IMG/VR virus record: IMGVR_UViG_3300032287_001413
Span: 1-38,881 of that record
Reading direction: 5' to 3' (one strand)
Length of the DNA stretch: 38,881 nt
From: a virus
Lineage: Duplodnaviria; Caudoviricetes
The notes beneath the pieces are model-generated. The model searched no databases. It was not told the DNA's origin and saw only the letters and a list, made by a program, of their open reading frames with translations. Below are positions 19,511 through 34,554 of the stretch, one piece after another (within the stretch, counting starts at the first letter, position 1; every line of letters begins with the position of its first letter). The translations under genes were made by a program, and so were the position numbers.

Positions 19511-20272
19511 CTAATCGGATTTTTCCGACTCGTCTTTCTTTTTCTTTTGGCGCTTAGGTGGCATCAAAGTATCTTCGTGAACTGATTCTGAGGTTGGGCC
19601 GTCAACGGGCATTGCTTCTTTATTGACTGGCAAATCAACTTCCAGTCTTTGAGCGCGACCACCAACTGAGTAACCGCGAAGTTTGCCAGCCTTGACCATT
19701 TCCCAAGCCCATGGTTCCCAGATAACTCCAAGAAAAACCGTATCTTGCGGGAATGTAATTTCTGCCGAAGTTCCATCTGCTTTTTGCATTGGAACCGCAA
19801 CTTCATACGGCCACGCCATGACTTCAACCCATTCACCAGCAACAACTTCCTTGTCGTGCTGTAGGCGAATTCGGCGGTCTCCACTACGAACATAATCCCA
19901 AACGGATTTCTGCAACTCAAGAGAATCCGTCCATTCGTTATGGGCGTCAATTCGGTCTGGAACGTACATTGGACCTAGTGTGTAACGGCGCTCTTCAGCC
20001 GATTTGGACACATAAGAAACTTGTTCCTCAGCGTCTAACTCAGCATTTAAACGGTCTACATAACCATCACTTAAAAAATCTAGGCTGTAATCGGCGTCAG
20101 CCCATTCGGAAGGAACTTCAAGCATCATGCCGTCAGCCTTGTACTTTTGAGCACTTCTAGACATTGATTCCCAAGCCACACGGCTTTGCTCATCAGTAAT
20201 AAGTTTTGTTTCGGACTGCGTGACGCCAGCGTTAATTTCAACAATCATTTTGTAAGCAATTGACATTTCCAT
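19511..20272 (-). CDS. XkdF-like prohead serine protease
   Basis: EERRYTLGPMYVPDRIDAHNEW...LQH...WEMVKAGKLRGYSVGG matches the XkdF protease pattern. Confidence 0.85.
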   Translation of the reverse strand: MEMSIAYKMIVEINAGVTQSETKLITDEQSRVAWESMSRSAQKYKADGMMLEVPSEWADADYSLDFLSDGYVDRLNAELDAEEQVSYVSKSAEERRYTLGPMYVPDRIDAHNEWTDSLELQKSVWDYVRSGDRRIRLQHDKEVVAGEWVEVMAWPYEVAVPMQKADGTSAEITFPQDTVFLGVIWEPWAWEMVKAGKLRGYSVGGRAQRLEVDLPVNKEAMPVDGPTSESVHEDTLMPPKRQKKKKDESEKSD

Positions 20273-21858
20273 TAAATTTTGCCTACCTTAAACTCGTCCC
20301 ACATTGCATCTAATTCATCTGGAGTAAATTTTGTAAAAGCCTTATCAATGAATTCTCTATAGGCAGTACGGTCAATTACTTGAACAGCAACTCCACGATG
20401 ACCTACTGCAATAATAGGCGGGATTGAGCCTTTAGCGCCATTTGTATCAAATAGAACCCAATTATCAAATTTTGGTGCCATGTAAGGAATAATGTCCGAA
20501 ACAGATTTATGCGCTTCTAAGAAAGCCCATGCTGGTACTAATCCTCGTGTTTCACTTTCTACTGCTCGATTCATGTTACGTTGCCAAGCATTTTCAATTG
20601 AAGCATGAACATAAGCACCATTTACTGTGTACCCAGCGTCACGGGCTTGGTCAATTTTAGATTGAAGTTTTATCGCTTTTGAATTTCCAGTGCCATCTAG
20701 CAATACATCAAGACCTCTACTAAAGGCTTGGCGTTGAATAATCTTTGCAATTGCTGAAGATTCTTCGTGAGTATATCCAGCGGCGTCTTCTTTAAGACCA
20801 ATAGAAACCATGTATTTAAACTCAGGAAGCATTGACTTAATTTCATCTGGGTCAACCATGACAAAATTATCTGCTGGGATTTTTACGCCGTATTGGTCAG
20901 CCTGATTCATGGCAATAGGGTTTTTTTGAACCGTTCCCTTACCAGAACCGCCACCGCCACCCATTAACGTAAATGTTGGATTACCCGTTGGAGTAATACC
21001 TTTAAGGTGCTCTTTAACAATTTTGTCATAGAGTTTTTCGCGTTCGGCAGTAAGTTTGTAACCGCCCTTGCCATCTGGAACAAGGTGTTCCCACATTGAA
21101 TCTCGACCCTTTTTAATGGCGTCACCATTAAAAGAAATGCTCTCTGGTTTATCCATCTGAGAAGTACCAGCCCAGTTACCATGAGATTCTTGGTCATGCT
21201 TACCTGCTTGGTGCTTACGAACCGAAGGGTCAAGCAAATCTTCTGGAATAATCCAAAACTTGCATAATCCCATATGGTCAATTAGTCCAGTGACTATCTC
21301 GCAACCTTGACCGCCTTCATAAAAAACGCAATTAGCGCAAATCATTCCTTCTTTGGCAAATGGGCTTTTTTCCATGTAGTGAGCGCCGTTAGCACCAGTG
21401 CCTTGGTCAAAAGAGCCAACTCGGTCAACAACGGCTTCAAGGGTTTCGTAAAGCAATTTCTGGGTTTCGTTGAGACGCATTTCTACTTCGTGAGACTTTT
21501 CAAAAGCGTCAAACTTTAAGGTGTATCCGTCAACGGTAAGCAACGTAGTTTTTTTAACGAACTCAGGATTGCCTAGGGATTCAATTACTTGGTGAGCAAT
21601 GTCCAGTGGCATTTGGGCAATAGCCTTGGCAACTGGGATTTGTGCCTCTATTTCTAACTCAATAACTGCCCGATTCCACTTGTCGTCTTCGTGACCGTGC
21701 TCAAGACCGCGTGCGAGAATTTCAGTAGTTACAGAGTGGTGGGCTTCAAGAACTGCTGGGTTTGCCACGTCAGTATGCAATGATTTATGCAGTGTTTCCA
21801 ACTCAGCATCATTAAGATGCGAGAAACCTACAGACATTAGAACTCCTAGTGGTGGCAA
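20272..21858 (-). CDS. Multidomain tagged protein: N-terminal domain, 4-Cys HiPIP-like domain, His tag, zeta-toxin-like P-loop kinase
   Basis: CANC...C...CKFW cluster; tag KHQAGKHDQESHGNW (21172-21216); then MGGGGGSGKGT, VDPDEIK, HEESS, LLDGT and R...RGLVP zeta-family motifs. Confidence 0.82.
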   Translation of the reverse strand: MPPLGVLMSVGFSHLNDAELETLHKSLHTDVANPAVLEAHHSVTTEILARGLEHGHEDDKWNRAVIELEIEAQIPVAKAIAQMPLDIAHQVIESLGNPEFVKKTTLLTVDGYTLKFDAFEKSHEVEMRLNETQKLLYETLEAVVDRVGSFDQGTGANGAHYMEKSPFAKEGMICANCVFYEGGQGCEIVTGLIDHMGLCKFWIIPEDLLDPSVRKHQAGKHDQESHGNWAGTSQMDKPESISFNGDAIKKGRDSMWEHLVPDGKGGYKLTAEREKLYDKIVKEHLKGITPTGNPTFTLMGGGGGSGKGTVQKNPIAMNQADQYGVKIPADNFVMVDPDEIKSMLPEFKYMVSIGLKEDAAGYTHEESSAIAKIIQRQAFSRGLDVLLDGTGNSKAIKLQSKIDQARDAGYTVNGAYVHASIENAWQRNMNRAVESETRGLVPAWAFLEAHKSVSDIIPYMAPKFDNWVLFDTNGAKGSIPPIIAVGHRGVAVQVIDRTAYREFIDKAFTKFTPDELDAMWDEFKVGKI

Positions 21859-21903
21859 ACCTTATGCCACTTTAATGCACACTAGGTACTATGACCCTAT
21901 TTC

Positions 21904-23658
21904 TTAGTCGTGTTTCTTTATTGGCGGTTTAACAAATACAGTTAGTTTTTCTTCGCCTGAAGACCGCTCCAGATTTGCAGTGCGTATTCGTCTATCTCGG
22001 CGTCTGTCATCTCGGAGATGTTCTTCAACTCCACCATCTTGACTTCTTTTTTCGACAATTCCAGTTCCTCCTGTATCTATCTCACTTAGGTTAGCAACGT
22101 CCCAGATTGCTTTCTGGTTACGTTCCCGACCTATCCTTGTTGCTTTGCTTTTGCTCTGAATGTTTTCAGATACGTCAAGATATACCTTACCCTCATTTAA
22201 CCATGTCCCAAGATAGTTTTTTCCGTTACCTAGGTCGTTCTTGTGTCTTTTCATGTAAGCAGAAAGGATTTTTGGACCTTTAACTGGGTCATTAAAGTCA
22301 ACTTCGTCAACAATTTTGCCGAAACTTGGTGGTTTTGCCACCATGTAACCAGTTGTAGGCATAGAACCGTCAACCATGTTGATTGATAATCCGCCCCATT
22401 CTTGAGTAAATCTAACAATGTCGGAAGCCACACTTGGGCTTAATCCAGTGCCCCGAACTCCATGAGATTTCTGGTCATGCTGACCTGCAAGGTGCTTTGT
22501 AACAATTTCTTTTTTGCCAATTATTTTTACTGGTTTATTAATTCTAAAACTGCCAACATCAGCAAAACCATAATCAACTTCTGGGTCTATTTCTAAATAA
22601 TCATCATCAATACTCTCAACTTCATAAACATAATTTTTTCCCTCATTAAAATCTTGTGCGTAACCAGATGCCTGACTTTCACTTGAAGTTAAATAAACAT
22701 AGTCGGCATTATTGAACTCTTGAGGGTCAATGTCTGGGTGCGAGCGGGGACTTTTTCCTGTTTGTGAGGGTGGGCGAAGATAATCTCCAATTTGTAAATC
22801 TACGTTAGAACCATGAAAATACCTTGCTCCGTGGCTTAATTGGTCATGTTGACCAGCCTGATGTTTTTTCATTTCGGTTGTGAGGATTCCCTTGATAACC
22901 GCTAATTCGAACTCAACCCAAGCCTTTTTAAGTGGCTTGTTGCTTTCCCCAAGACCAATTGATTCAATTCCGCTTGCTTTGTTCCATGCTAGAACCACGT
23001 CAATAAGTTCCATGTGTGTCATGTCAACGCGCAAGACAGGAATGGACTCACCTTTATCTTTGAAAGAAAGAAAGGCTGACGCCGCCCAACGGTGATGCCC
23101 GTCAATTACATAATTGTCAGACGAAATAACAATGCGAGCACCGTCACCTTTTCCATGACCGTTTTCTTTTATGTCCCGTGCAATTTTTCCAGACTTAGAC
23201 GCTGAAATTTCTGCTTGAATCGGGTGCAATTTTTGAGGAGAAAGGTCTTCTCTGGTAACTGCAATACCGCGATTAGTCATTTCTACAAGGAACTCATCTT
23301 TTTGGTCTTTAGGAACTTGTGGCATTTTGTCGCGCATAATTCCCAAGTTGTCGCGGGTAAATAACTGAGTGCCAACAATTTCAAGGTTAGTTAAGTCAGG
23401 ATTATCTTTACGGTCAGCCATCTGGTCTAACCAAAATTCAGCGTCAGTAGGGACTATTTTGCCAACTTCACCTTTAATAACTTTGTCTAAGGCGTCTTGA
23501 ACACCATACTTAAAATCAGATTTGTTGTTATTGCTTTTGTCGGTATCCCATGAGCCGTGAGTGGCTTGGTCGTGCTTACCCTGTTGGTGCTTGAGCAAAA
23601 TGAACTCAGTACCCTGTTGGATAGCAACAAGGCGAGCAAAACGGTTAGAACGTGACAT
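21904..23658 (-). CDS. Three-module tagged polyprotein: ParB/Srx-like, Arr-like ADP-ribosyltransferase, unknown domain
   Basis: Three tags. Module 1 LHPIQAEI...VIDGHHRWAA; module 2 YFHGS...YVYLTS...YA...YVYEVE...DPE; module 3 GYMVA...YLGTW...VYLDVS...NQKAIWD. Confidence 0.78.
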   Translation of the reverse strand: MSRSNRFARLVAIQQGTEFILLKHQQGKHDQATHGSWDTDKSNNNKSDFKYGVQDALDKVIKGEVGKIVPTDAEFWLDQMADRKDNPDLTNLEIVGTQLFTRDNLGIMRDKMPQVPKDQKDEFLVEMTNRGIAVTREDLSPQKLHPIQAEISASKSGKIARDIKENGHGKGDGARIVISSDNYVIDGHHRWAASAFLSFKDKGESIPVLRVDMTHMELIDVVLAWNKASGIESIGLGESNKPLKKAWVEFELAVIKGILTTEMKKHQAGQHDQLSHGARYFHGSNVDLQIGDYLRPPSQTGKSPRSHPDIDPQEFNNADYVYLTSSESQASGYAQDFNEGKNYVYEVESIDDDYLEIDPEVDYGFADVGSFRINKPVKIIGKKEIVTKHLAGQHDQKSHGVRGTGLSPSVASDIVRFTQEWGGLSINMVDGSMPTTGYMVAKPPSFGKIVDEVDFNDPVKGPKILSAYMKRHKNDLGNGKNYLGTWLNEGKVYLDVSENIQSKSKATRIGRERNQKAIWDVANLSEIDTGGTGIVEKRSQDGGVEEHLRDDRRRDRRIRTANLERSSGEEKLTVFVKPPIKKHD

Positions 23659-23688
23659 GAGGATAGATTACCCCATGACGATTGCTAA

Positions 23689-23865
23689 CTACTGGTCAAC
23701 TCGCTTCCAGTCTCCGACCTTGGTGAACATATCCATGAGACCAATTTCGGTGCGTCTGCCATTTGTCAAAATAAGAAAACCTTTTATGGCACCATCGTTA
23801 TCAATAGAATCAAAAACAAATTGGGTGCCGTCAGCCCTTACAGAAATTACTTGTCCTTTTATCAT
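23689..23865 (-). CDS. 58-aa untagged hypothetical protein inside the array
   Basis: Not in the ORF track. AGAAGGG RBS then MIKGQVISVRADGTQFVFDSIDNDGAIKGFLILTNGRRTEIGLMDMFTKVGDWKRVDQ*, filling the gap between two tagged genes. Confidence 0.7.
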   Translation of the reverse strand: MIKGQVISVRADGTQFVFDSIDNDGAIKGFLILTNGRRTEIGLMDMFTKVGDWKRVDQ

Positions 23866-23880
23866 TTATCTACCCTTCTA

Positions 23881-24867
23881 TTATGAATCGTAGCCGACAA
23901 ATTCAATATCTGGAAATACTTTTGAAAAAGCATCTGCATCAAAATCCATGTTTCCGTAAGGAACGTAGATTTTTTCAACATCTTTTAGGGATATTCCACC
24001 AAAAGTTTGAGTTTCAAAATAACTTTTATCTGTAAAATCTTCTGCTCCGCTCCACTGCCAAGGATAACCTCTGACTGTAACTTCAGACGCTTTCATAATG
24101 TCACTGGTGCTTGGGGTTTTATTTAATTTCATTGGAATAGTTCCAGTATTTAAAGAATCTCCAACAGTCATTGTTGACCTATCTTTTAGATAATCTTTTA
24201 ATACAAACCTAACTTCTCCGTATTGTGCAACTCCGTATGTAGTTATGCTTTCGTCAAAATCATCAATTGAAAGATACCCGTAAATTGGTCTTTCTGTATC
24301 ATTAACACTTATGGGAACTGATTGGCTTCTTGCTTCTCCGCCCCTTCTTACCGTGGGGTTATAGTGTCCGTTTGATTTTGCAATTTCAAACTGTGTTTTA
24401 AATTTTGGGTCTTCAGAGTCAATCATAATTCCAAAAGAATCAACGTCCATTGCAATGCAAATTTTTCCATTTTCCATAGCGCTTACCACTTCTGGCGCAA
24501 CGTCATCTTCAAAACTTTTGTATGTATCTTCCTTTTTTATTTCAGAATACGCATCTATTTCATCTTTTAGTCGTTCTGTCATTGCCCTGTATTGTAAATC
24601 TTTAGGTTTAATTGTGTCCCAGCCTGACAAGGTAAGAGAGTCGGGAATTGTTTCATCAACATACTCTGTAAAAAATTTGCCAACTTCGGTTTCTTTAAAA
24701 TTAATGTCATCAACATCTCGTGTGGATAATTTTTCTACAGCGTTTTGAAATCGTAAATCCAAAGTAAAATCACTTACGTCTCCATGTGCCCAACTGCCGT
24801 GAGTGCTTTGGTCATGCTGTCCAGCAAAGTGTTTGGTCAACTGTTTTTTGTTTATCATGTTGAGCAA
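23881..24867 (-). CDS. Tagged protein with DUF3626-like domain
   Basis: Tag KHFAGQHDQSTHGSW, then FKTQFE..SNG, RPIYGYL, QYGEVRFVLK, RSTMTVGDS and YFETQTFGGISLKDVEKI. Confidence 0.7.
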   Translation of the reverse strand: MLNMINKKQLTKHFAGQHDQSTHGSWAHGDVSDFTLDLRFQNAVEKLSTRDVDDINFKETEVGKFFTEYVDETIPDSLTLSGWDTIKPKDLQYRAMTERLKDEIDAYSEIKKEDTYKSFEDDVAPEVVSAMENGKICIAMDVDSFGIMIDSEDPKFKTQFEIAKSNGHYNPTVRRGGEARSQSVPISVNDTERPIYGYLSIDDFDESITTYGVAQYGEVRFVLKDYLKDRSTMTVGDSLNTGTIPMKLNKTPSTSDIMKASEVTVRGYPWQWSGAEDFTDKSYFETQTFGGISLKDVEKIYVPYGNMDFDADAFSKVFPDIEFVGYDS

Positions 24868-24898
24868 AAACGGTTAATCAGTAAAACTTGCTATTCCT

Positions 24899-25633
24899 TT
24901 AGGCATTAGGCATCGCACTTTCTACTGTAGTTAGTTCTTTCCATAGTAATTCAATTTTATCGGCGGGTATTTGCAAATAATTAGAATCAGAAGTGTCACG
25001 CTCAAAACCCATGCTTATCCAAAAAGGAACTGCTTTGTCTAATGGATACAACTGCAAGCCCATTTTATTTTTGTAGGCATAGTTAATTGCTTGCCCATAA
25101 AGCATACTTCCAGCACCGTCTACTATTCCAGTTGTACCTAGGTAGTGCATTTCAATAATGGGTTCACCGTTAGAATTGCTTTCAAATGATACTGCCATTG
25201 CTCCAGCAACATTTCCTTTATCGGTTAATAAAACAGATTTAAAAGCAAGTTCTGGATTATTATTTTCCCAATCCATTGCTCTAGAGGTCATTAAAAATCC
25301 TTCAGTGTACAAAATTTCATCAATGTCTAAATCTTCAGTTTTACTAGCAATTTCAGTAGCAATGTTTTCTACATTTTCAAATAGTTCTAGTTTTCTTTTT
25401 GAGTCTTTTATGAACTCTTGCGTTACACCTTGTTTTTTAAGACCAGCGGTTTTTTCTGAAATCTTTCCAGCAATACCAGTAGCCCAACTGCCATGCGTGC
25501 TTTGGTCGTGTTGCCCCGCTAGGTGTTTCATTAATGGGGGAACTACATAAACAGATGTTGGCTCAATTTTTGCCGAACGCTTAACGCCTAAGTCTGGATA
25601 GACAGCACCAAAAGTTACATTTTCAAGAATCAT
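24899..25633 (-). CDS. Tagged GNAT-family acetyltransferase
   Basis: Tag KHLAGQHDQSTHGSW. C-terminal IEMHYLGT...GAGSML...LQLYPLDKAVPFWISMGF fits GNAT motifs A/B. Confidence 0.75.
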   Translation of the reverse strand: MILENVTFGAVYPDLGVKRSAKIEPTSVYVVPPLMKHLAGQHDQSTHGSWATGIAGKISEKTAGLKKQGVTQEFIKDSKRKLELFENVENIATEIASKTEDLDIDEILYTEGFLMTSRAMDWENNNPELAFKSVLLTDKGNVAGAMAVSFESNSNGEPIIEMHYLGTTGIVDGAGSMLYGQAINYAYKNKMGLQLYPLDKAVPFWISMGFERDTSDSNYLQIPADKIELLWKELTTVESAMPNA

Positions 25634-26328
25634 TCAAACACGCCCTTGCCGTCTGTCCTGTAAGTAAAAACATCTAAGAGGTTAGCCTGTTTGTCCAAAC
25701 CTTCATTGCGTAAAAGGTGCTTCCAAGTTTCAAGGAATGGCAGATTATGACCACCGTTCTGAGTTGCAACTTTCCAGTTTCCTTCAAGAATGTGCGACAT
25801 TTCGTGTAGCAAAACAAATTGGCTAACTCCAGATGGTTTGTAAATCATAACTGGAATTGCTCCGCCGTAAAGTGGGTGAGTATCTGGACTCACATCTCCA
25901 CGGGTAACTCCTGCTTCAATTCCGTCAACTAAGTATTGTCCAGTGGTATCGGGGTGAAGGCTAAAAACCCTATCCCCGTATCCGTACTTAGTAAATACGC
26001 TTTCCATGTACTCGTTAATTTCTTGCTTGTCGGTAAATACTTTTCCTTGACCGATGCTTTTAAGCGCTCCTGAATCAAGTGCCAGCCCTGAACCCATTTC
26101 AATGTTTTGGTCATCTGGGGCATCTGTTGGTTGCAAGTCGCTCCAATCAGAACTGCCCTTAAAAGTTTTTGGTGTACCGCTTAGATTATTTGGTTTGAAC
26201 TGAGCACCGTTACCAGTAGCCCATGAACCGTGGGAACTCTGGTCGTGCTTGCCCGCTAGGTGCTTTTCCAAAACAAGACTTAAACCCTTGTCGGAGTCAT
26301 AACCAAATCGTTCAACTCTAGGGGTCAT
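25630..26328 (-). CDS. Tagged zincin metallopeptidase (HExxH plus downstream His)
   Basis: Tag KHLAGKHDQSSHGSW; VLLHEMSHIL...GGHNLPF. Confidence 0.75.
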   Translation of the reverse strand: MTPRVERFGYDSDKGLSLVLEKHLAGKHDQSSHGSWATGNGAQFKPNNLSGTPKTFKGSSDWSDLQPTDAPDDQNIEMGSGLALDSGALKSIGQGKVFTDKQEINEYMESVFTKYGYGDRVFSLHPDTTGQYLVDGIEAGVTRGDVSPDTHPLYGGAIPVMIYKPSGVSQFVLLHEMSHILEGNWKVATQNGGHNLPFLETWKHLLRNEGLDKQANLLDVFTYRTDGKGVFE

Positions 26329-27086
26329 TGAACTATCTCCACGTCTATAATCTTGCCACGGATTTGCGTTACTTTAAACTTGCTACTTCTTGGCAATATA
26401 AATTCGTACTCAGCCCAAGGGTCTCCTTTAATAAATGGATTTGGAAACAATCCTTTTGTTCCTTTTGGTAAGTGAAATTGCAAAATCATTCCCTGTTTTT
26501 CAACTGGAGTTTTTCCATAAACTATTTCTTTTTGACCAGCAAATGTAGCCGCAATTTTTGGATTTAAAGTAGTGGAAACAAACCCTAAATCTTGAAAAGT
26601 ATCTCCAACTTTTAATTTATTAAAAAAGAAAGAACCCATAACACCTTGGTTTGCTATACCCCGATAAGCAATTACTGGGTCTTTTAAAGGTGGGGCATCA
26701 TTTATTGCCTTATCAATTTTATCAATTTTGTCTGTCACAAAACTTTTTTCTGGAACTGATGAATCGCGTAATTGGTCATTTATGTCTGTGTGTCCACTGC
26801 CCCTATAAAAAGCAACCGCGTTTCCCCTATTTGTATTTCTGTCTTCGCCGTAACCTGCTTCTCTTTGTTGATTTTCTATGGTTGATAAGAAATCTTTAAT
26901 TTCTGTATCGTCTTCAAAATCACCCATCATCATCATGGATTCATCAGCCCAGTCAAACACATTTTCAAAAATGTCATCCGACCATGACCCGTGAGTTGAC
27001 TGGTCGTGTTGACCTGCAAGGTGCTTTTCTAGAGTATTAGTAATACCAAAATTGCATGACACAGAAGCAAGAATTATTTTTTCCAT
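26325..27086 (-). CDS. Tagged R-S-E type ADP-ribosyltransferase (VIP2/C3/Alt-like)
   Basis: Probable start ATG 27086 after AGGAGG. Tag, then IN.QLR, AYRG, GFVSTT and EYEFILPRSSKFKV catalytic motifs. Confidence 0.9.
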   Translation of the reverse strand: MEKIILASVSCNFGITNTLEKHLAGQHDQSTHGSWSDDIFENVFDWADESMMMMGDFEDDTEIKDFLSTIENQQREAGYGEDRNTNRGNAVAFYRGSGHTDINDQLRDSSVPEKSFVTDKIDKIDKAINDAPPLKDPVIAYRGIANQGVMGSFFFNKLKVGDTFQDLGFVSTTLNPKIAATFAGQKEIVYGKTPVEKQGMILQFHLPKGTKGLFPNPFIKGDPWAEYEFILPRSSKFKVTQIRGKIIDVEIVQ

Positions 27087-27934
27087 TTTTCCTCCTGAGC
27101 CATTTTTTCCATCCAAGAGTAAGAATCTTTACCATCATTAATAAACCAATCGGCATACGCTTCAGCATAGAATTCCGCTAAACTGGTTTTTCCGTACCAA
27201 CTTAAATCGTTTTGTGCGGATTCAAAAAAGGTTTTTTTCCTAGCATCTCCTTCAAATAGCGCTTCAAGGCGAGATTCTTTGTCAGTAACAGATTTACTAA
27301 AAACTCTTGCAAAATCAACAACGTGACCCCATTCGTGGGCAAGAATGTATTCTCCGACAGAAGTAACTTTTGCTTCCATGGAGCGTTTCATCCATGAAGT
27401 TCTATCTAGAAAATCAGGTTCTTTTTTTTCAAAAACTTCAGGCTTTATGTAGATGTCTGCGACAAGTTTACTGTCTTCAACGTAAGTGCCATTTTCACGG
27501 TAAGAAGTGTCTTCAACATAAGTAGTTGTTTCTCCTAATGTGCTAAAACCTGAATACAGTCTTTTATCATCGCTTAAAACAATATTTACTTCGTCCCATC
27601 CACTTAAATCGGTGGTTTTTTTTAAATCTCTAACAATAGACAGAAAATCTTTTTGTTCTTCTTCTGTCAAAAATTTTTGAAATTTAACTGAGGTTTTTAC
27701 GCCATCGTCATCTGTAAATTCATACTTTTCTTGACTGGTTTTAGCATCTTTGCCAGTTGCCCAACTACCGTGCGAACTCTGGTCATGTTGACCAGCAAGA
27801 TGTTTTTCCATCTTGGCAAAAAAGTCTTCTGCCTTTTTACCTGCAAGAAGGTGGTCGTTGTAAGCCTTGGCTTGCTCATTGGTGAAGTCTCTAACCATAA
27901 GACCGTAACGGCGTGATTGAACTGGAGTCATCAT
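27074..27934 (-). CDS. Tagged zincin metallopeptidase (HExxH plus E)
   Basis: Tag KHLAGQHDQSSHGSW; ILAHEWGHVVD...SWYGKTSLAEFYAEAYA. Confidence 0.82.
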   Translation of the reverse strand: MMTPVQSRRYGLMVRDFTNEQAKAYNDHLLAGKKAEDFFAKMEKHLAGQHDQSSHGSWATGKDAKTSQEKYEFTDDDGVKTSVKFQKFLTEEEQKDFLSIVRDLKKTTDLSGWDEVNIVLSDDKRLYSGFSTLGETTTYVEDTSYRENGTYVEDSKLVADIYIKPEVFEKKEPDFLDRTSWMKRSMEAKVTSVGEYILAHEWGHVVDFARVFSKSVTDKESRLEALFEGDARKKTFFESAQNDLSWYGKTSLAEFYAEAYADWFINDGKDSYSWMEKMAQEEKWKK

Positions 27935-27939
27935 AATTA

Positions 27940-28821
27940 TTATTTGTAATCCTGTTCTGCAACCGTAAGCATAGACCTGTCTAAAATAACCAAATATTCT
28001 GTTTTATCATCTTGAACAAAATTAACATTGTAGGCTTGAAAACCTTGCGCCGCTAAATTATTTGCCACGCTATTTTTGTGAGTACGGGGAATACTCATAC
28101 CTTCGTAATTCATAGCCTTTTTAACTTGTTCTTTTGTTGGCATCCTAACGCTTTTTGGTATGTGAATAGCCATAACTTGCCCGTTGCCAAAAGTGTTTGT
28201 ATCTTCATCTACGGTATCTGCATAAAAACGTGCGCCATCTGGATATATGGTCGCGTAGGTACCATTCCCAAATGCTCCCCAGCCAGCGTAGTATTCGCCT
28301 CTTTTAAATTGTTCTACAGCCTGTTCTGCTGTGTAGGATTTGCCATCTTTTTTAAAGTCTGCAATTCCTCTGTAAACAACAAACCCGCCTTCTGTTTCTT
28401 GCAGTTTTAATATGTCTGAAACTGTCGCAACTGTTTTAGGTTTACCCGTAAATCCTTGGCGCTCCGCAATAATCTTTAAAGAGTTATCACCGTATGAACT
28501 TCCTGTTTTTCTTTCAGTGTCTTCCATTTGCTCTATTAAGTCTTGAGTTTCTTGATTTGGAGTTCCGTCAGGATTAAAAAATACTTTGTCCAACTCAGCA
28601 GTGATGTCAACTCCAGCGCCACCGCCAGCCCAACTTCCGTGAGTGCGCTGGTCGTGCTTACCCTGTTGGTGCTTATTAAAATTAAGCGAATCAAGGAACT
28701 CATAAGGGTCTTGATTTTCAATTAAAGTAAAGTAATAAAAATCTGCTTTTTGCATCGGAGAAAGTTCCGCAACGATTTTTGCTAACTCACGAGATTGAGT
28801 TGGAGTCAATGCCATCATCAT
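27940..28821 (-). CDS. Tagged ADP-ribosyltransferase-fold protein
   Basis: Tag KHQQGKHDQRTHGSW; VYRG...G.GAFGNGTYAT...ARFYA...EYLVILDRS. Paralogous to the last module of 28818-30461. Confidence 0.68.
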   Translation of the reverse strand: MMMALTPTQSRELAKIVAELSPMQKADFYYFTLIENQDPYEFLDSLNFNKHQQGKHDQRTHGSWAGGGAGVDITAELDKVFFNPDGTPNQETQDLIEQMEDTERKTGSSYGDNSLKIIAERQGFTGKPKTVATVSDILKLQETEGGFVVYRGIADFKKDGKSYTAEQAVEQFKRGEYYAGWGAFGNGTYATIYPDGARFYADTVDEDTNTFGNGQVMAIHIPKSVRMPTKEQVKKAMNYEGMSIPRTHKNSVANNLAAQGFQAYNVNFVQDDKTEYLVILDRSMLTVAEQDYK

Positions 28822-30461
28822 TTTATCTCCTCAACCGCAAGCATAGACCTGTCCCAGATTACATAAACAAGACTTTCTTTAGGTTGATTACGAAGTCCCA
28901 TGGCTCTCATACCTTGTGCACCTCTATAACCTTTTGCGGCTAAGGAAACTCCGAGGTCATCGTCAAGCCAAAAATTTGTTATCTTATCTTTGATGCGCCA
29001 CCTGTGGTCGCTAACTGCAACGCTAAAATCAAAATTACTCATCAAAGAATTTGGTGGAATTGCTACTTTTATTACTTTTCCATTTGGAGTTCCAGTAGTT
29101 CCACGAGCGTAAAAATCCGCAACTTCTTTGTCTGCCGCAAAATAATAGCCGTCTCCTGAAGTTCCTCTTCCACCGTGATAATCGCCATTCATAAATTGGT
29201 CAACTATTTTTTCGGCTGAAATTGGGTCTCCCGCAATACTTTCTCCGTCAATTACTCCGCGATAAGCGATTGTCCAACCTTGTTTTTCTAAAGAATTCAT
29301 TTCTTCGGATGTAACAATTTTTGGTTTTCCATCAAAACCTTGTTTTTTAGCAATTATTTCTAGCGCTAAATTGCCAACATTGGTTCCATTGACATGGGCT
29401 TGAACCACCATGCTAGATGCTACTTTTTTTCCTTCTGATTTTAAATACTCTGTAACATTTTTACCAAAGTATGTTCCCAACTCTTTTGTTATGTCTTTAG
29501 CCTTGCCAGTTGCCCAAGAGCCGTGGGTCTCTTGGTCATGTTGACCTGCTTGATGTTTTTGAACTCGTGGGTGGTAAGACCACTCATACAAAGAGTTACC
29601 GTCAGTGTAGATTTCATCGGCATTAACTGTGTTGCTCAGAATGTCGTAGTCATTGTTTAGGTTGCTTTGACCATGTTGTTCCGCATACTGGCGGTCAATA
29701 GTTACCCAGTCACCCACGTTAACTTGTATTGTGCCCTTGGGAACTGCTCGATAAATCTGCACCTTGGCATTTGGGTTTCCGCGCATTGAAGTAATAATCG
29801 AATGAACTCGTCTAGCCATTTCAGGCTCTCCGCCACCATAAATACGAGCGCCATCTTTGTCGTAAACATTTTCTGGATAAATAGCACCGCCACCTGTTAA
29901 ATCATACGCTGGAGCATTTTCTTCTGGGTCTGGTGCGCGGTGAGACATTCGGTAATTGGTATTTACGCCATCACTACCAGTAGCCCATGAGCCATGAGTT
30001 TCTTGGTCGTGCTGACCTGCTTGGTGTTTTTGCATCGGCTCGCTTTGACCGTATAACACTCCCCATTCTTTATCTCCAGTAGCCCCGTCACCCCAAGGTA
30101 TGTATAGAGTTCTTCCATAATTGCTGTTAAATTTTTCGGCTAAGTGGGTTGACGCTGGAGAAATTGTTTTTCCCCAAAAAATAATTTTGTTTGGAAATGA
30201 ATCATAAATTTTAGTTAATAATTTAGTGGCGTAACCTTTTCCCTCGTCATAAGAATCTATTTGTTGAATTTCTATGTCATTTGATTTTACATAAAGTGCT
30301 GTGGCTAGAGTTTTTCCATTATTGTCTTTCATGGATAATGTAGTTCCACTAACGCCATTTTGTTCTTCAAACGTAAATCCAGCCCATGAACCGTGTGAAC
30401 TTTGGTCGTGACCGCCTGAAAGGTGCTTACGGAGCGGCGGAAATACAAATACAGTTTTCAT
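28818..30461 (-). CDS. Three-module tagged polyprotein: GNAT-like, ART-like, ART-like
   Basis: Three tags. Module 1 IEIQQIDS..EGKGYATKLL; module 2 IYRAVP...GDWVT..RQYA..HG...EW; module 3 AYRG...GDGYYFA...FYA...VIWDRS. ATGA-coupled to MuF. Confidence 0.75.
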   Translation of the reverse strand: MKTVFVFPPLRKHLSGGHDQSSHGSWAGFTFEEQNGVSGTTLSMKDNNGKTLATALYVKSNDIEIQQIDSYDEGKGYATKLLTKIYDSFPNKIIFWGKTISPASTHLAEKFNSNYGRTLYIPWGDGATGDKEWGVLYGQSEPMQKHQAGQHDQETHGSWATGSDGVNTNYRMSHRAPDPEENAPAYDLTGGGAIYPENVYDKDGARIYGGGEPEMARRVHSIITSMRGNPNAKVQIYRAVPKGTIQVNVGDWVTIDRQYAEQHGQSNLNNDYDILSNTVNADEIYTDGNSLYEWSYHPRVQKHQAGQHDQETHGSWATGKAKDITKELGTYFGKNVTEYLKSEGKKVASSMVVQAHVNGTNVGNLALEIIAKKQGFDGKPKIVTSEEMNSLEKQGWTIAYRGVIDGESIAGDPISAEKIVDQFMNGDYHGGRGTSGDGYYFAADKEVADFYARGTTGTPNGKVIKVAIPPNSLMSNFDFSVAVSDHRWRIKDKITNFWLDDDLGVSLAAKGYRGAQGMRAMGLRNQPKESLVYVIWDRSMLAVEEIK

Positions 30462-32933: not shown

Positions 32934-33566
32934 CTATTTGATGTAGAGCGTGGCTTCGAAATTAAAGAATTTCCAGAATTTTATTCCCTTGCCAAATCCT
33001 GCTTCACGAGCCAAGCGCTCATTTTCATCTGATGTGTTTAAACGCATAATAGAACGCAAGTCCTCTTCTTTGCTCAGAATCTCTTCGGCAGTAAAGTTTT
33101 TTCGCTTGAAGTCGTAATGCGCGAAGTTCATTAAGTCTTGTTCAATACCGCCATTTGCGTAAACCTTTTCAGCCCAAATAAAGGCTCCCTTGTTAATCAG
33201 GCTGTCATGGATTTTGCACAAAACATCTAAACGAGATTCTCTAGGCATAAATTGAAGAGTAAAGATAGAAAGAACCAAACTGCTAATTCCATAATCCGTA
33301 AAATGCTCAATCGGACATTCAAGGAAACGGGTTTTCTTTTCATCCCTTGGTAAAAGGTTCTCTGCTTTGTCAATGCCAATCTTTTGACCTAAGTGCTCAA
33401 TTTCTTTTAGCAACTTTCCTGTGGAGCAACCTAAATCAATGACATTAGTTTCGGGAACAACAAAAAACTTTGAAAGGCTTAGTACCGAGTCATAAAGCAA
33501 ATCGTAATTTGGAATTGAACTTGCAATGTGGTCATCAAAATCATTTATGGTCTCAAAAGAAAACAT
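32934..33566 (-). CDS. cmoA: CmoA-like carboxy-S-adenosylmethionine synthase / class I methyltransferase
   Basis: FDDHIASSIPNY, DLGCSTG, FTLQF, AEK, FKR..F..EEI..K...L..IM and AGF...FNF are colinear with CmoA motifs. Confidence 0.8.
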   Translation of the reverse strand: MFSFETINDFDDHIASSIPNYDLLYDSVLSLSKFFVVPETNVIDLGCSTGKLLKEIEHLGQKIGIDKAENLLPRDEKKTRFLECPIEHFTDYGISSLVLSIFTLQFMPRESRLDVLCKIHDSLINKGAFIWAEKVYANGGIEQDLMNFAHYDFKRKNFTAEEILSKEEDLRSIMRLNTSDENERLAREAGFGKGIKFWKFFNFEATLYIK

Positions 33567-34554
33567 GAAGCCCTTTACCTATCTCTTCAACTACTGGGAT
33601 TGTTATTGTGCGTCCAAGACGCTCGTACCTTACGTTGTCTGAAACCAGCGAGCCGTCTTCGTAATACTTAGTGAACTCATCTGGAAACCCTTGCAGTCTT
33701 TCACACTCAAGCGGGGTTAGTTTGCGAATTACAGTTTTATCTCCGTCATTAAGAGCAACTCCATGGCGGTCTTGAGCCGTCAAGGTAAACGCAGAATCCC
33801 CATCGTCTTTTATTCGGCGTCCGTTTTGGCGCTTCTCATCTCGGTTAACTGTGAGAACTGGTTTGACGGTTACATAGGGGACGTTTCCGCCACCCGTTCC
33901 CATCTGGGCTAAAAGAGTAGGTGCGATTGTTCCAAACTCTCTAAAGGCTCCGTCTCTTCGACTCCATTGAGAGATTTGCGCTCTTTCTTCAAATTCGCTG
34001 TCTCTATCATTTTTTGAACCCGTTCTTCCGATAGGAAATACTTTGGGTCTGGGGTGTCCTCTAAGATTTGCCACAACAAAGATTCGTTCTCTGTGTTGTG
34101 GGACTCCGAAGTTTTCGCTGTTAAGCAATTCCCATTGACAGTCATACCCCATCTCATCCAAGACTCCGAGAATGACTGCGAAGGTTTGTCCGTTGTCGTG
34201 GTTGAGTAATCCTTTGACGTTCTCAAAGAGAATGTAAGGTATTCGCTTATCCCGTGCGAGCCTAAACATTTCAAAAGCGAGAGTTCCTCTCGTGTCTTCC
34301 AATGAGAACCCTGTACGTTTTCCTGCAACGCTAAAAGTGGCGCAAGGAAATCCTCCACAAAGCAAATCTGCGTCTGGTAAGTCTCCAGCGGAAACATCTC
34401 TAATATCTCGTGGGTCTGGTGCGTGTCCGAACTGTCGTTCATAGATTCTCCTAGGGGCTGGCAAGATTTCATTTGCCCATACACATTCGTGACCAGTGTT
34501 TTCCAAGCCTAAACGGAAAGCACCAATGCCAGCAAACAACTCAATAAATTTCAA
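33553..34554 (-). CDS. DNA cytosine-C5 methyltransferase family protein (putative carboxymethyltransferase)
   Basis: Motifs I FAGIG, IV GFPC, VI ENVKG, VIII QHRERIF and IX RKLTPLECERLQGFP. Motif X reads LGRT instead of the usual GN(S/A). Confidence 0.92.
   Translation of the reverse strand: MKFIELFAGIGAFRLGLENTGHECVWANEILPAPRRIYERQFGHAPDPRDIRDVSAGDLPDADLLCGGFPCATFSVAGKRTGFSLEDTRGTLAFEMFRLARDKRIPYILFENVKGLLNHDNGQTFAVILGVLDEMGYDCQWELLNSENFGVPQHRERIFVVANLRGHPRPKVFPIGRTGSKNDRDSEFEERAQISQWSRRDGAFREFGTIAPTLLAQMGTGGGNVPYVTVKPVLTVNRDEKRQNGRRIKDDGDSAFTLTAQDRHGVALNDGDKTVIRKLTPLECERLQGFPDEFTKYYEDGSLVSDNVRYERLGRTITIPVVEEIGKGLHVFF
33909..34484 (-). CDS. Alternate-frame ORF nested in the methyltransferase (possible second polypeptide)
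   Basis: 191 open codons in a shifted frame, containing SESWMRWGMTVNG...SLLWQILEDTPDPKYFLSE. Confidence 0.55.
   Translation of the reverse strand: MYGQMKSCQPLGESMNDSSDTHQTHEILEMFPLETYQTQICFVEDFLAPLLALQENVQGSHWKTREELSLLKCLGSHGISEYLTFSLRTSKDYSTTTTDKPSQSFSESWMRWGMTVNGNCLTAKTSESHNTENESLLWQILEDTPDPKYFLSEERVQKMIETANLKKERKSLNGVEETEPLESLEQSHLLF

Follow-up and report, generated by a model that had tools for sequence, protein, structure and literature searches.

Two overlapping genes in the window, the whole 38,881-nt stretch of viral DNA that was analysed, probably encode a system of the CmoA-CmoX type that would write 5-carboxymethylcytosine (5cxmC) in phage DNA, likely as anti-restriction. The initial annotation had predicted 5cxmC from a CmoA-like protein beside a transferase with Arg in motif X. 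This prediction was supported by the placement of the Arg at a validated position and by the coupling to cmoA in 95 of 96 genes. The annotation also mentioned recent natural phage examples, and the CmoA-CmoX system of Synechococcus phage S-B43 has indeed been published (Yang et al. 2025; PMC12783734, excerpted text). The chemistry is already known; a probable separate origin, a predicted two-chain layout and a proposed modular specificity set the window system apart.

The window represents about 64% of the virus genome and contained portal, major capsid, SSB and WhiB genes, the last of which suggests an actinobacterial host. Both genes of interest lay upstream of the portal gene on the minus strand, with the transferase gene first (33553..34554; 333 aa, TTG start) and the cmoA-like gene second (32934..33566; 210 aa), and the previously noticed overlap of 14 nt was confirmed. 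At positions 20272-30461 (minus strand), about nine head-region ORFs had a common repeat (K-H-x-x-G-x-H-D-Q-x-x-H-G-x-W; 11 copies) and varied in their C-terminal domains (ADP-ribosyltransferase, PF03496; Arr-like ADP-ribosyltransferase; zeta-toxin-like kinase; ParB-like). Situated beside a MuF gene, these ORFs have the look of a cassette encoding cargo proteins for packaging in the capsid.

Transferase and CmoA-like protein

The transferase matched PF00145 (E 4e-71) and TIGR00675, and had a C5-methyltransferase (C5-MTase) fold with a FAGIG motif I, GFPC with the catalytic Cys71, ENV, RxR, motif IX, and a motif X with Arg315. Its sequence matched HhaI with E 2e-48, versus E 3e-11 for SpCmoX (8YF3). 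The model aligned with HhaI at Z 31.4 (rmsd 3.2; 260 aligned) and with SpCmoX 8YF3 at Z 23.3 (rmsd 2.4; 232 aligned). The variable region of the model was of low confidence (89 residues with pLDDT < 50), and target prediction was made without the model.

Arg315 (codon CGC, 33610..33612, minus strand) is the predicted carboxylate-binding residue for carboxy-SAM (Cx-SAM). In phmmer alignments, 'LGRTI' of the transferase aligned with 'FGNSV' of HhaI and Dcm, 'IGNAV' of HaeIII and 'VGRMV' of SpCmoX, which placed Arg315 at the position of HhaI Asn304 and SpCmoX Arg350. The replacement of the motif X Asn by Arg read in the initial annotation therefore held against the Asn of HhaI, HaeIII and Dcm, and the alignment with M.HhaI and CmoA that it had proposed also confirmed the mismatch in CmoA that it had pointed out, treated below. 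According to the excerpted text of PMC12783734, Arg350 of SpCmoX replaces HhaI Asn304 and contacts the carboxymethyl group of Cx-SAM (PDB 8YF3), and the enzyme uses Cx-SAM exclusively, placing 5cxmC at GC. A cationic substitution at the cofactor-proximal site converts M.MpeI (N374K) and M.CviPI to Cx-SAM use (PMC13288465, excerpted text), in agreement with the M.MpeI precedent invoked by the annotation.

Arg was present at the motif X column in 116 of the closest 120 proteins (the other 4 were not parsed), versus Asn in 126 and Arg in 7 of 150 wider representatives, so the Arg is not a chance occurrence. The column was not strictly Asn, as Met, Leu, Gly and Asp also occurred. In two Staphylococcus phage loci (L094 5485-6492; L095 4660-5667), cmoA adjoined a C5-MTase with Gly at this column, and one of the two also had an AsnB-like gene; because the column holds Gly and not Arg, these enzymes may bind the carboxylate another way. 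An intein-like sequence was inserted at the catalytic Pro-Cys in the CmoX-like gene of Erwinia phage Yoloswag (L105 950-3058).

The CmoA-like protein scored 87.7 bits with TIGR00740 (E 9e-25), under the equivalog cut-off of 193.3, as did the validated SpCmoA (115.6), to which it was 39% identical; CmoA of S-B43 makes Cx-SAM (Yang et al. 2025, PMC12783734, excerpted text). Its model (pLDDT 92.9) had the CmoA fold with lid and SAM-binding residues, at TM 0.88-0.89 to the CmoA/YecO structures 4GEK, 4IWN and 1IM8. The SAM-site residues Y21, D44, G46, S48, D66 and E133 were invariant, and Pro85 and Ile101 departed. All 65 aligned proteins kept the equivalents of CmoA Y39, D62, G64, S66, D89, E164, K165 and K198. 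Pro85 stood where 52 of the 65 relatives had Asp, probably the position of the adenine-binding Asp117.

The initial annotation had cautioned that Glu occupies the column of a conserved Arg of E. coli CmoA. The caution was correct, as Glu167 and Arg171 of the window protein fell on the columns of E. coli CmoA Arg199 and Glu203, and the E. coli-type salt-bridge residue Arg199, which binds carboxylate (PMC3663124, excerpted text), was absent. As an argument against CmoA activity it lost most of its weight, since SpCmoA, an enzyme of biochemically proven activity, has the identical charge swap; what remains of it is that Arg171, kept in 65 of 65 aligned proteins, would have to take over the role of E. 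coli Arg199. The pattern K-E-x-x-x-R was common to the window protein and SpCmoA, and E...R was also found in S-CRM01; Erwinia and Alcaligenes phage CmoA proteins kept R...E. Among 71 parsed window-type partners, 67 had E/R and 4 had D/R at the 199 and +4 columns. In Alcaligenes phage Afa-NA1 (L096 1453-8461), an E. coli-type CmoA (R...E) followed the portal gene; an annotated adenine methylase lay nearby, and a C5-MTase was absent within 4 kb.

Gene coupling, descent and the nested gene

Of 96 distinct genes with Arg and GFPC (Arg/GFPC) in viral contigs, 95 were followed by a cmoA-like gene no more than 900 nt downstream, and the remaining gene was at the end of its contig. No such gene was found in 40 control loci around other C5-MTases, many of which had short flanks. 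The cmoA-like partners were of the window type in 77 loci and of a second type in 18 (e.g., L085 3785-6262; L034 7115-7759); the second type was 22-23% identical to the window protein and lacked Arg at both the 199 and the +4 columns. The cultured phages that best matched the transferase (Lacticaseibacillus, Enterococcus, Streptococcus, Clostridium, Bacillus) were absent among the organism names listed for 69 CmoA-match records (ten names, one not displayed). In prokaryote genomes, only 2 loci were found, too few to assign a host. A third Arg lineage (SFPC; L014 6209-8627, L015 1352-2954) stood beside a cmoA-like gene and had no nested gene of the kind described below.

The transferase was much nearer to HhaI and to Asn-type phage enzymes (40-45%) than to SpCmoX. 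A first quick tree (71 rows, no distant outgroups) nested the Arg/GFPC clade among Asn enzymes, with an unstable placement of CmoX; with this set, the AU test did not reject a joint clade with the SPPC enzymes (p = 0.76), and the constrained tree was 19 lnL better. A careful tree (78 rows; 212 columns, leaving out the variable region and the motif X site) was built after the removal of 25 rows of this set (near-duplicates and the intein-bearing L105) and the addition of 32 outgroup rows. The SPPC clade then grouped with GPPC enzymes (100/93), at least three changes were needed for Arg, a single origin occurred in 0 of 200 bootstrap trees, and the AU test rejected a joint clade with SpCmoX (p = 0.00012). 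These trees make it quite probable that the Arg arose separately from that of SpCmoX, within an ordinary family of Asn-type phage methylases. Both the Arg/GFPC and the SPPC clades read E-R-x-G-R around the motif X Arg, so that a transfer of a short motif X segment between the two is conceivable.

A nested gene in the +1 frame of the transferase gene (33909..34442, minus strand; phrog_16143 E 2e-29) encodes 177 aa from an ATG after a Shine-Dalgarno-like site (AGGAG, 34448..34452, minus strand) lying in main-frame Arg codons, and its product is a predicted beta-type partner chain. The +1 frame was free of stops for 171-213 codons in 89 of 89 Arg/GFPC genes, and the +2 frame for a median of 40. 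Of 96 genes, 94 had the nested ATG and 91 the Shine-Dalgarno-like site, where 116 of 124 Arg codons were AGG or AGA, compared with 1469 of 3026 elsewhere. A conserved alternate-frame gene with its own start signals is thus located inside the methyltransferase gene. Its product was 51% identical over 118 aa to ORF14 of phage MM1, which is annotated inside the MM1 methylase gene at the identical frame offset. The nested gene was present in the Asn-type L100, L111, L112 and MM1, and absent in SpCmoX; its occurrence in L100, L111 and L112 gives independent support for descent from the Asn-type family.

The nested product carried a segment that is in frame in M.rho11s (16 of 33 residues identical). 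A search of 454 candidates at E ≤ 0.001 returned no longer (fused) forms of the nested protein, which counts as weak evidence. The predicted complex of nested chain and transferase scored 0.47, versus 0.01 for the best control, with a partner pLDDT of 41-44 and prediction runs agreeing in at least 39% of contacts. Of 157 solved pairs, 116 attained the score mark, as did 2 of 215 mismatched ones; those that did so with a score of 0.60 or lower were only 18 solved pairs and both mismatches. The model weakly suggests that the nested chain partners the transferase. Codon-optimised synthesis of the transferase gene would erase the nested gene, and a false negative could result.

Recognition modules and palindrome content

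Relatives had one to three short exchangeable modules between motifs VIII and IX, in varied combinations. The window transferase had two in tandem that resembled target-recognition modules, as in multispecific C5-MTases: module B (residues ~193-228; 33871..33978, minus strand), which is swapped among relatives, and module C (residues ~230-266; 33757..33867, minus strand), with GGCC as its predicted target. Module C resembled the last variable module of M.rho11s (48% over 122 aa, rho11s 374-493), which we take to be the GGCC module of that enzyme, itself presumably a multispecific Bacillus phage C5-MTase of the SPR/phi3T family. The literature searched had nothing usable on module order in rho11s or SPR, and the excerpted text of PMC8936443 had no TRD data.

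Observed versus expected counts of palindromes in the window were 0/156 for AGCT, 0/99 for GATC, 0/71 for CCGG, 0/68 for GCWGC and 7/96 for GGCC; CGWCG was also absent. The depletion even of GGCC, the predicted target of module C, speaks against the proposed 5cxmC system. In the window and in six other genomes (G001, G003-G007), several 4- or 5-base and many 6-base palindromes were wholly absent, and the purged set differed between genomes. Because so many palindromes were purged, a target read from window depletion alone was uninformative without a contrast between modules.

For the contrast, 68 sequence units with a minimum length of 7 kb were pooled into 27 clusters and 32 cluster-by-module groups; in another 5 units no enzyme could be parsed. 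Each of four modules went with partial retention of one motif: module C with GGCC (observed/expected > 0.05 in 14 of 14 groups, versus 3 of 18 without the module), module D with CCGG (13 of 15 versus 3 of 17), module A with CCWGG (10 of 12 versus 2 of 20), and module B(WRRGYF) with GCWGC (6 of 9 versus 4 of 23). In groups that had the window B module and an identical purged set, the counts for GGCC were 18/252 and 46/280 with module C and 3/526 without it. Lineage and host are confounders of these links, which had initially been noticed by eye in data that overlap with those of the contrast, and more than 1000 motifs were scanned.

No target was assigned to the window B module, for which the link with GGWCC was not significant (3 of 3 versus 17 of 29 groups; Fisher p = 0.27) and CGWCG was absent in 3 of 3 groups, as well as in several groups without the module. 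The use of GCSGC as a retained target mark failed, with near-identical enzymes occurring in loci nearly lacking GCSGC.

Module-linked retention fits protection relaxing the avoidance of palindromes, and the retention links make it somewhat probable that the transferase family is multispecific. The proposal of an anti-restriction role in the initial annotation gained indirect support from the genome-wide purging and the module-linked retention, the latter confounded by lineage and host.

Proposed mechanism, alternatives and relation to known systems

By homology and fold, the CmoA-like protein would convert SAM and prephenate to Cx-SAM. As modelled on SpCmoX, Cys71 of the transferase would attack C6 of cytosine and Arg315 would hold the carboxylate while the carboxymethyl group moves to C5. 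The +1-frame gene would supply, as a second chain, the segment that the single-chain M.rho11s has in frame, and the tandem modules would give several palindromic targets, probably including GGCC, as in multispecific Bacillus phage methylases. With AsnB-type ligases nearly absent, the base would not be extended.

That the transferase is an ordinary 5mC enzyme tolerating Arg in motif X, beside a plain SAM-dependent methyltransferase or a SAM drain, is quite improbable. It would agree with the occurrence of Met, Leu, Gly and Asp at the motif X column elsewhere and with a CmoA-like protein that falls below the equivalog cut-off, lacks Arg199 and has Pro85, but Arg and cmoA occurred together in 95 of 96 genes, SpCmoA is active below the same cut-off and with the same swap, and wild-type SpCmoX accepts only Cx-SAM (PMC12783734, excerpted text). 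Extension of 5cxmC, by an enzyme other than AsnB or by a ligase encoded in the third of the genome that the record lacks, is improbable too. The window record is 64% complete, the clade member G075/L085 had an AsnB-like gene directly upstream, and DNA of S-B43 holds only the glycine amide (PMC12783734, excerpted text). Against extension, PF00733 (AsnB-type ligase) was detected in 1 of 21 clade records, in 0 of the 8 that were at least 90% complete, and not in the window record, and G075 carries the second, divergent CmoA-like type. As a positive control, the same search found PF00733 in 4 of 5 CmoA phages and missed S-CRM01, whose locus shows no ligase gene. Because the PF00733 search found AsnB-type ligases nearly absent from the clade, unextended 5cxmC is the likely end product.

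It is very improbable that the enzyme mainly marks host DNA, blocking transcription or reading by restriction-modification, while the phage purges its own sites. The absence of AGCT, GATC, CCGG, GCWGC and CGWCG from the window, and of CGWCG from all three groups with the window B module, would be expected from such marking. But four other modules went with motif retention and not loss, CGWCG was also absent in several groups without the window B module, and the purged sets included adenine and other host-system motifs and varied between genomes, as restriction pressure from hosts predicts.

Carboxymethylation of phage DNA is the preferred reading, and the window system, which lies outside the published SPPC CmoX set, probably works like CmoA-CmoX. 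A broader proposal, plausible but falling just short of an even call, is a separately evolved family of two-chain multispecific carboxymethyltransferases, in which actinobacterial phages converted a modular methylase to Cx-SAM and swap modules (GGCC, CCGG, CCWGG, GCWGC and others), placing unextended 5cxmC at unpurged restriction sites. If so, natural DNA carboxymethylation arose at least two to three times by Asn-to-Arg change, a route also used by engineers, and the published SPPC filter, by which 5,615 CmoX candidates were defined (PMC12783734, excerpted text), misses a large clade. The clade would also be a natural toolkit of carboxymethyltransferases specific for 4-5 bp, with module targets readable from phage genomes. 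Carboxymethyltransferases with extended recognition sequences are a stated engineering goal (PMC12783734, excerpted text), and the clade may be a source of such enzymes whose modules can be exchanged.

The literature searched, which excludes subscription journals, yielded no paper about carboxymethyltransferases that are modular or of the GFPC type. In the supplement of PMC12783734 (4 files, possibly without sequences), GFPC, three contig numbers and Arg199 were all absent.

The window system shares with S-B43 a cmoA gene adjoining that of a C5-MTase homologue, Arg where HhaI has Asn304, and the Glu/Arg swap in CmoA. It differs in that the transferase has GFPC and not the SPPC of SpCmoX, falls in a separate clade in the careful tree (29% identity, confined to the N-terminal 160 aa), and has a modular recognition region, whereas SpCmoX is a GC-dinucleotide enzyme (excerpted text of the same paper). 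The window also has the nested +1-frame gene and a transferase-then-cmoA order, which S-B43 does not. S-B43 is a Synechococcus phage with CmoY, which adds glycine (PMC12783734, excerpted text), whereas no CmoY was found in the window record (about 64% complete), whose host is probably actinobacterial.

M.rho11s (X05242) resembles the window transferase in its core and last variable module (45-48% identity) and in tandem variable modules that end in a T-L/V loop. It differs in having Asn, no cmoA and the 'ILE..KYYLS' segment in frame, and was not the sister of the Arg/GFPC clade in the careful tree. MM1 ORF13/ORF14 (AJ302074) likewise have a second gene inside the methyltransferase gene in the +1 frame, with Asn at motif X of ORF13 and Arg in the window transferase. 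The alpha and beta chains of M.EcoHK31I have the same arrangement, and that enzyme needs the alternate-frame chain encoded inside its methyltransferase gene (PMC2836561, excerpted text); compared by description only, the EcoHK31I beta chain carries motif IX, whereas the window main chain keeps it. The engineered carboxymethyltransferases M.MpeI N374K and M.CviPI have a cationic residue at the homologous site and dinucleotide targets, whereas the window enzyme is natural and has its own synthase gene.
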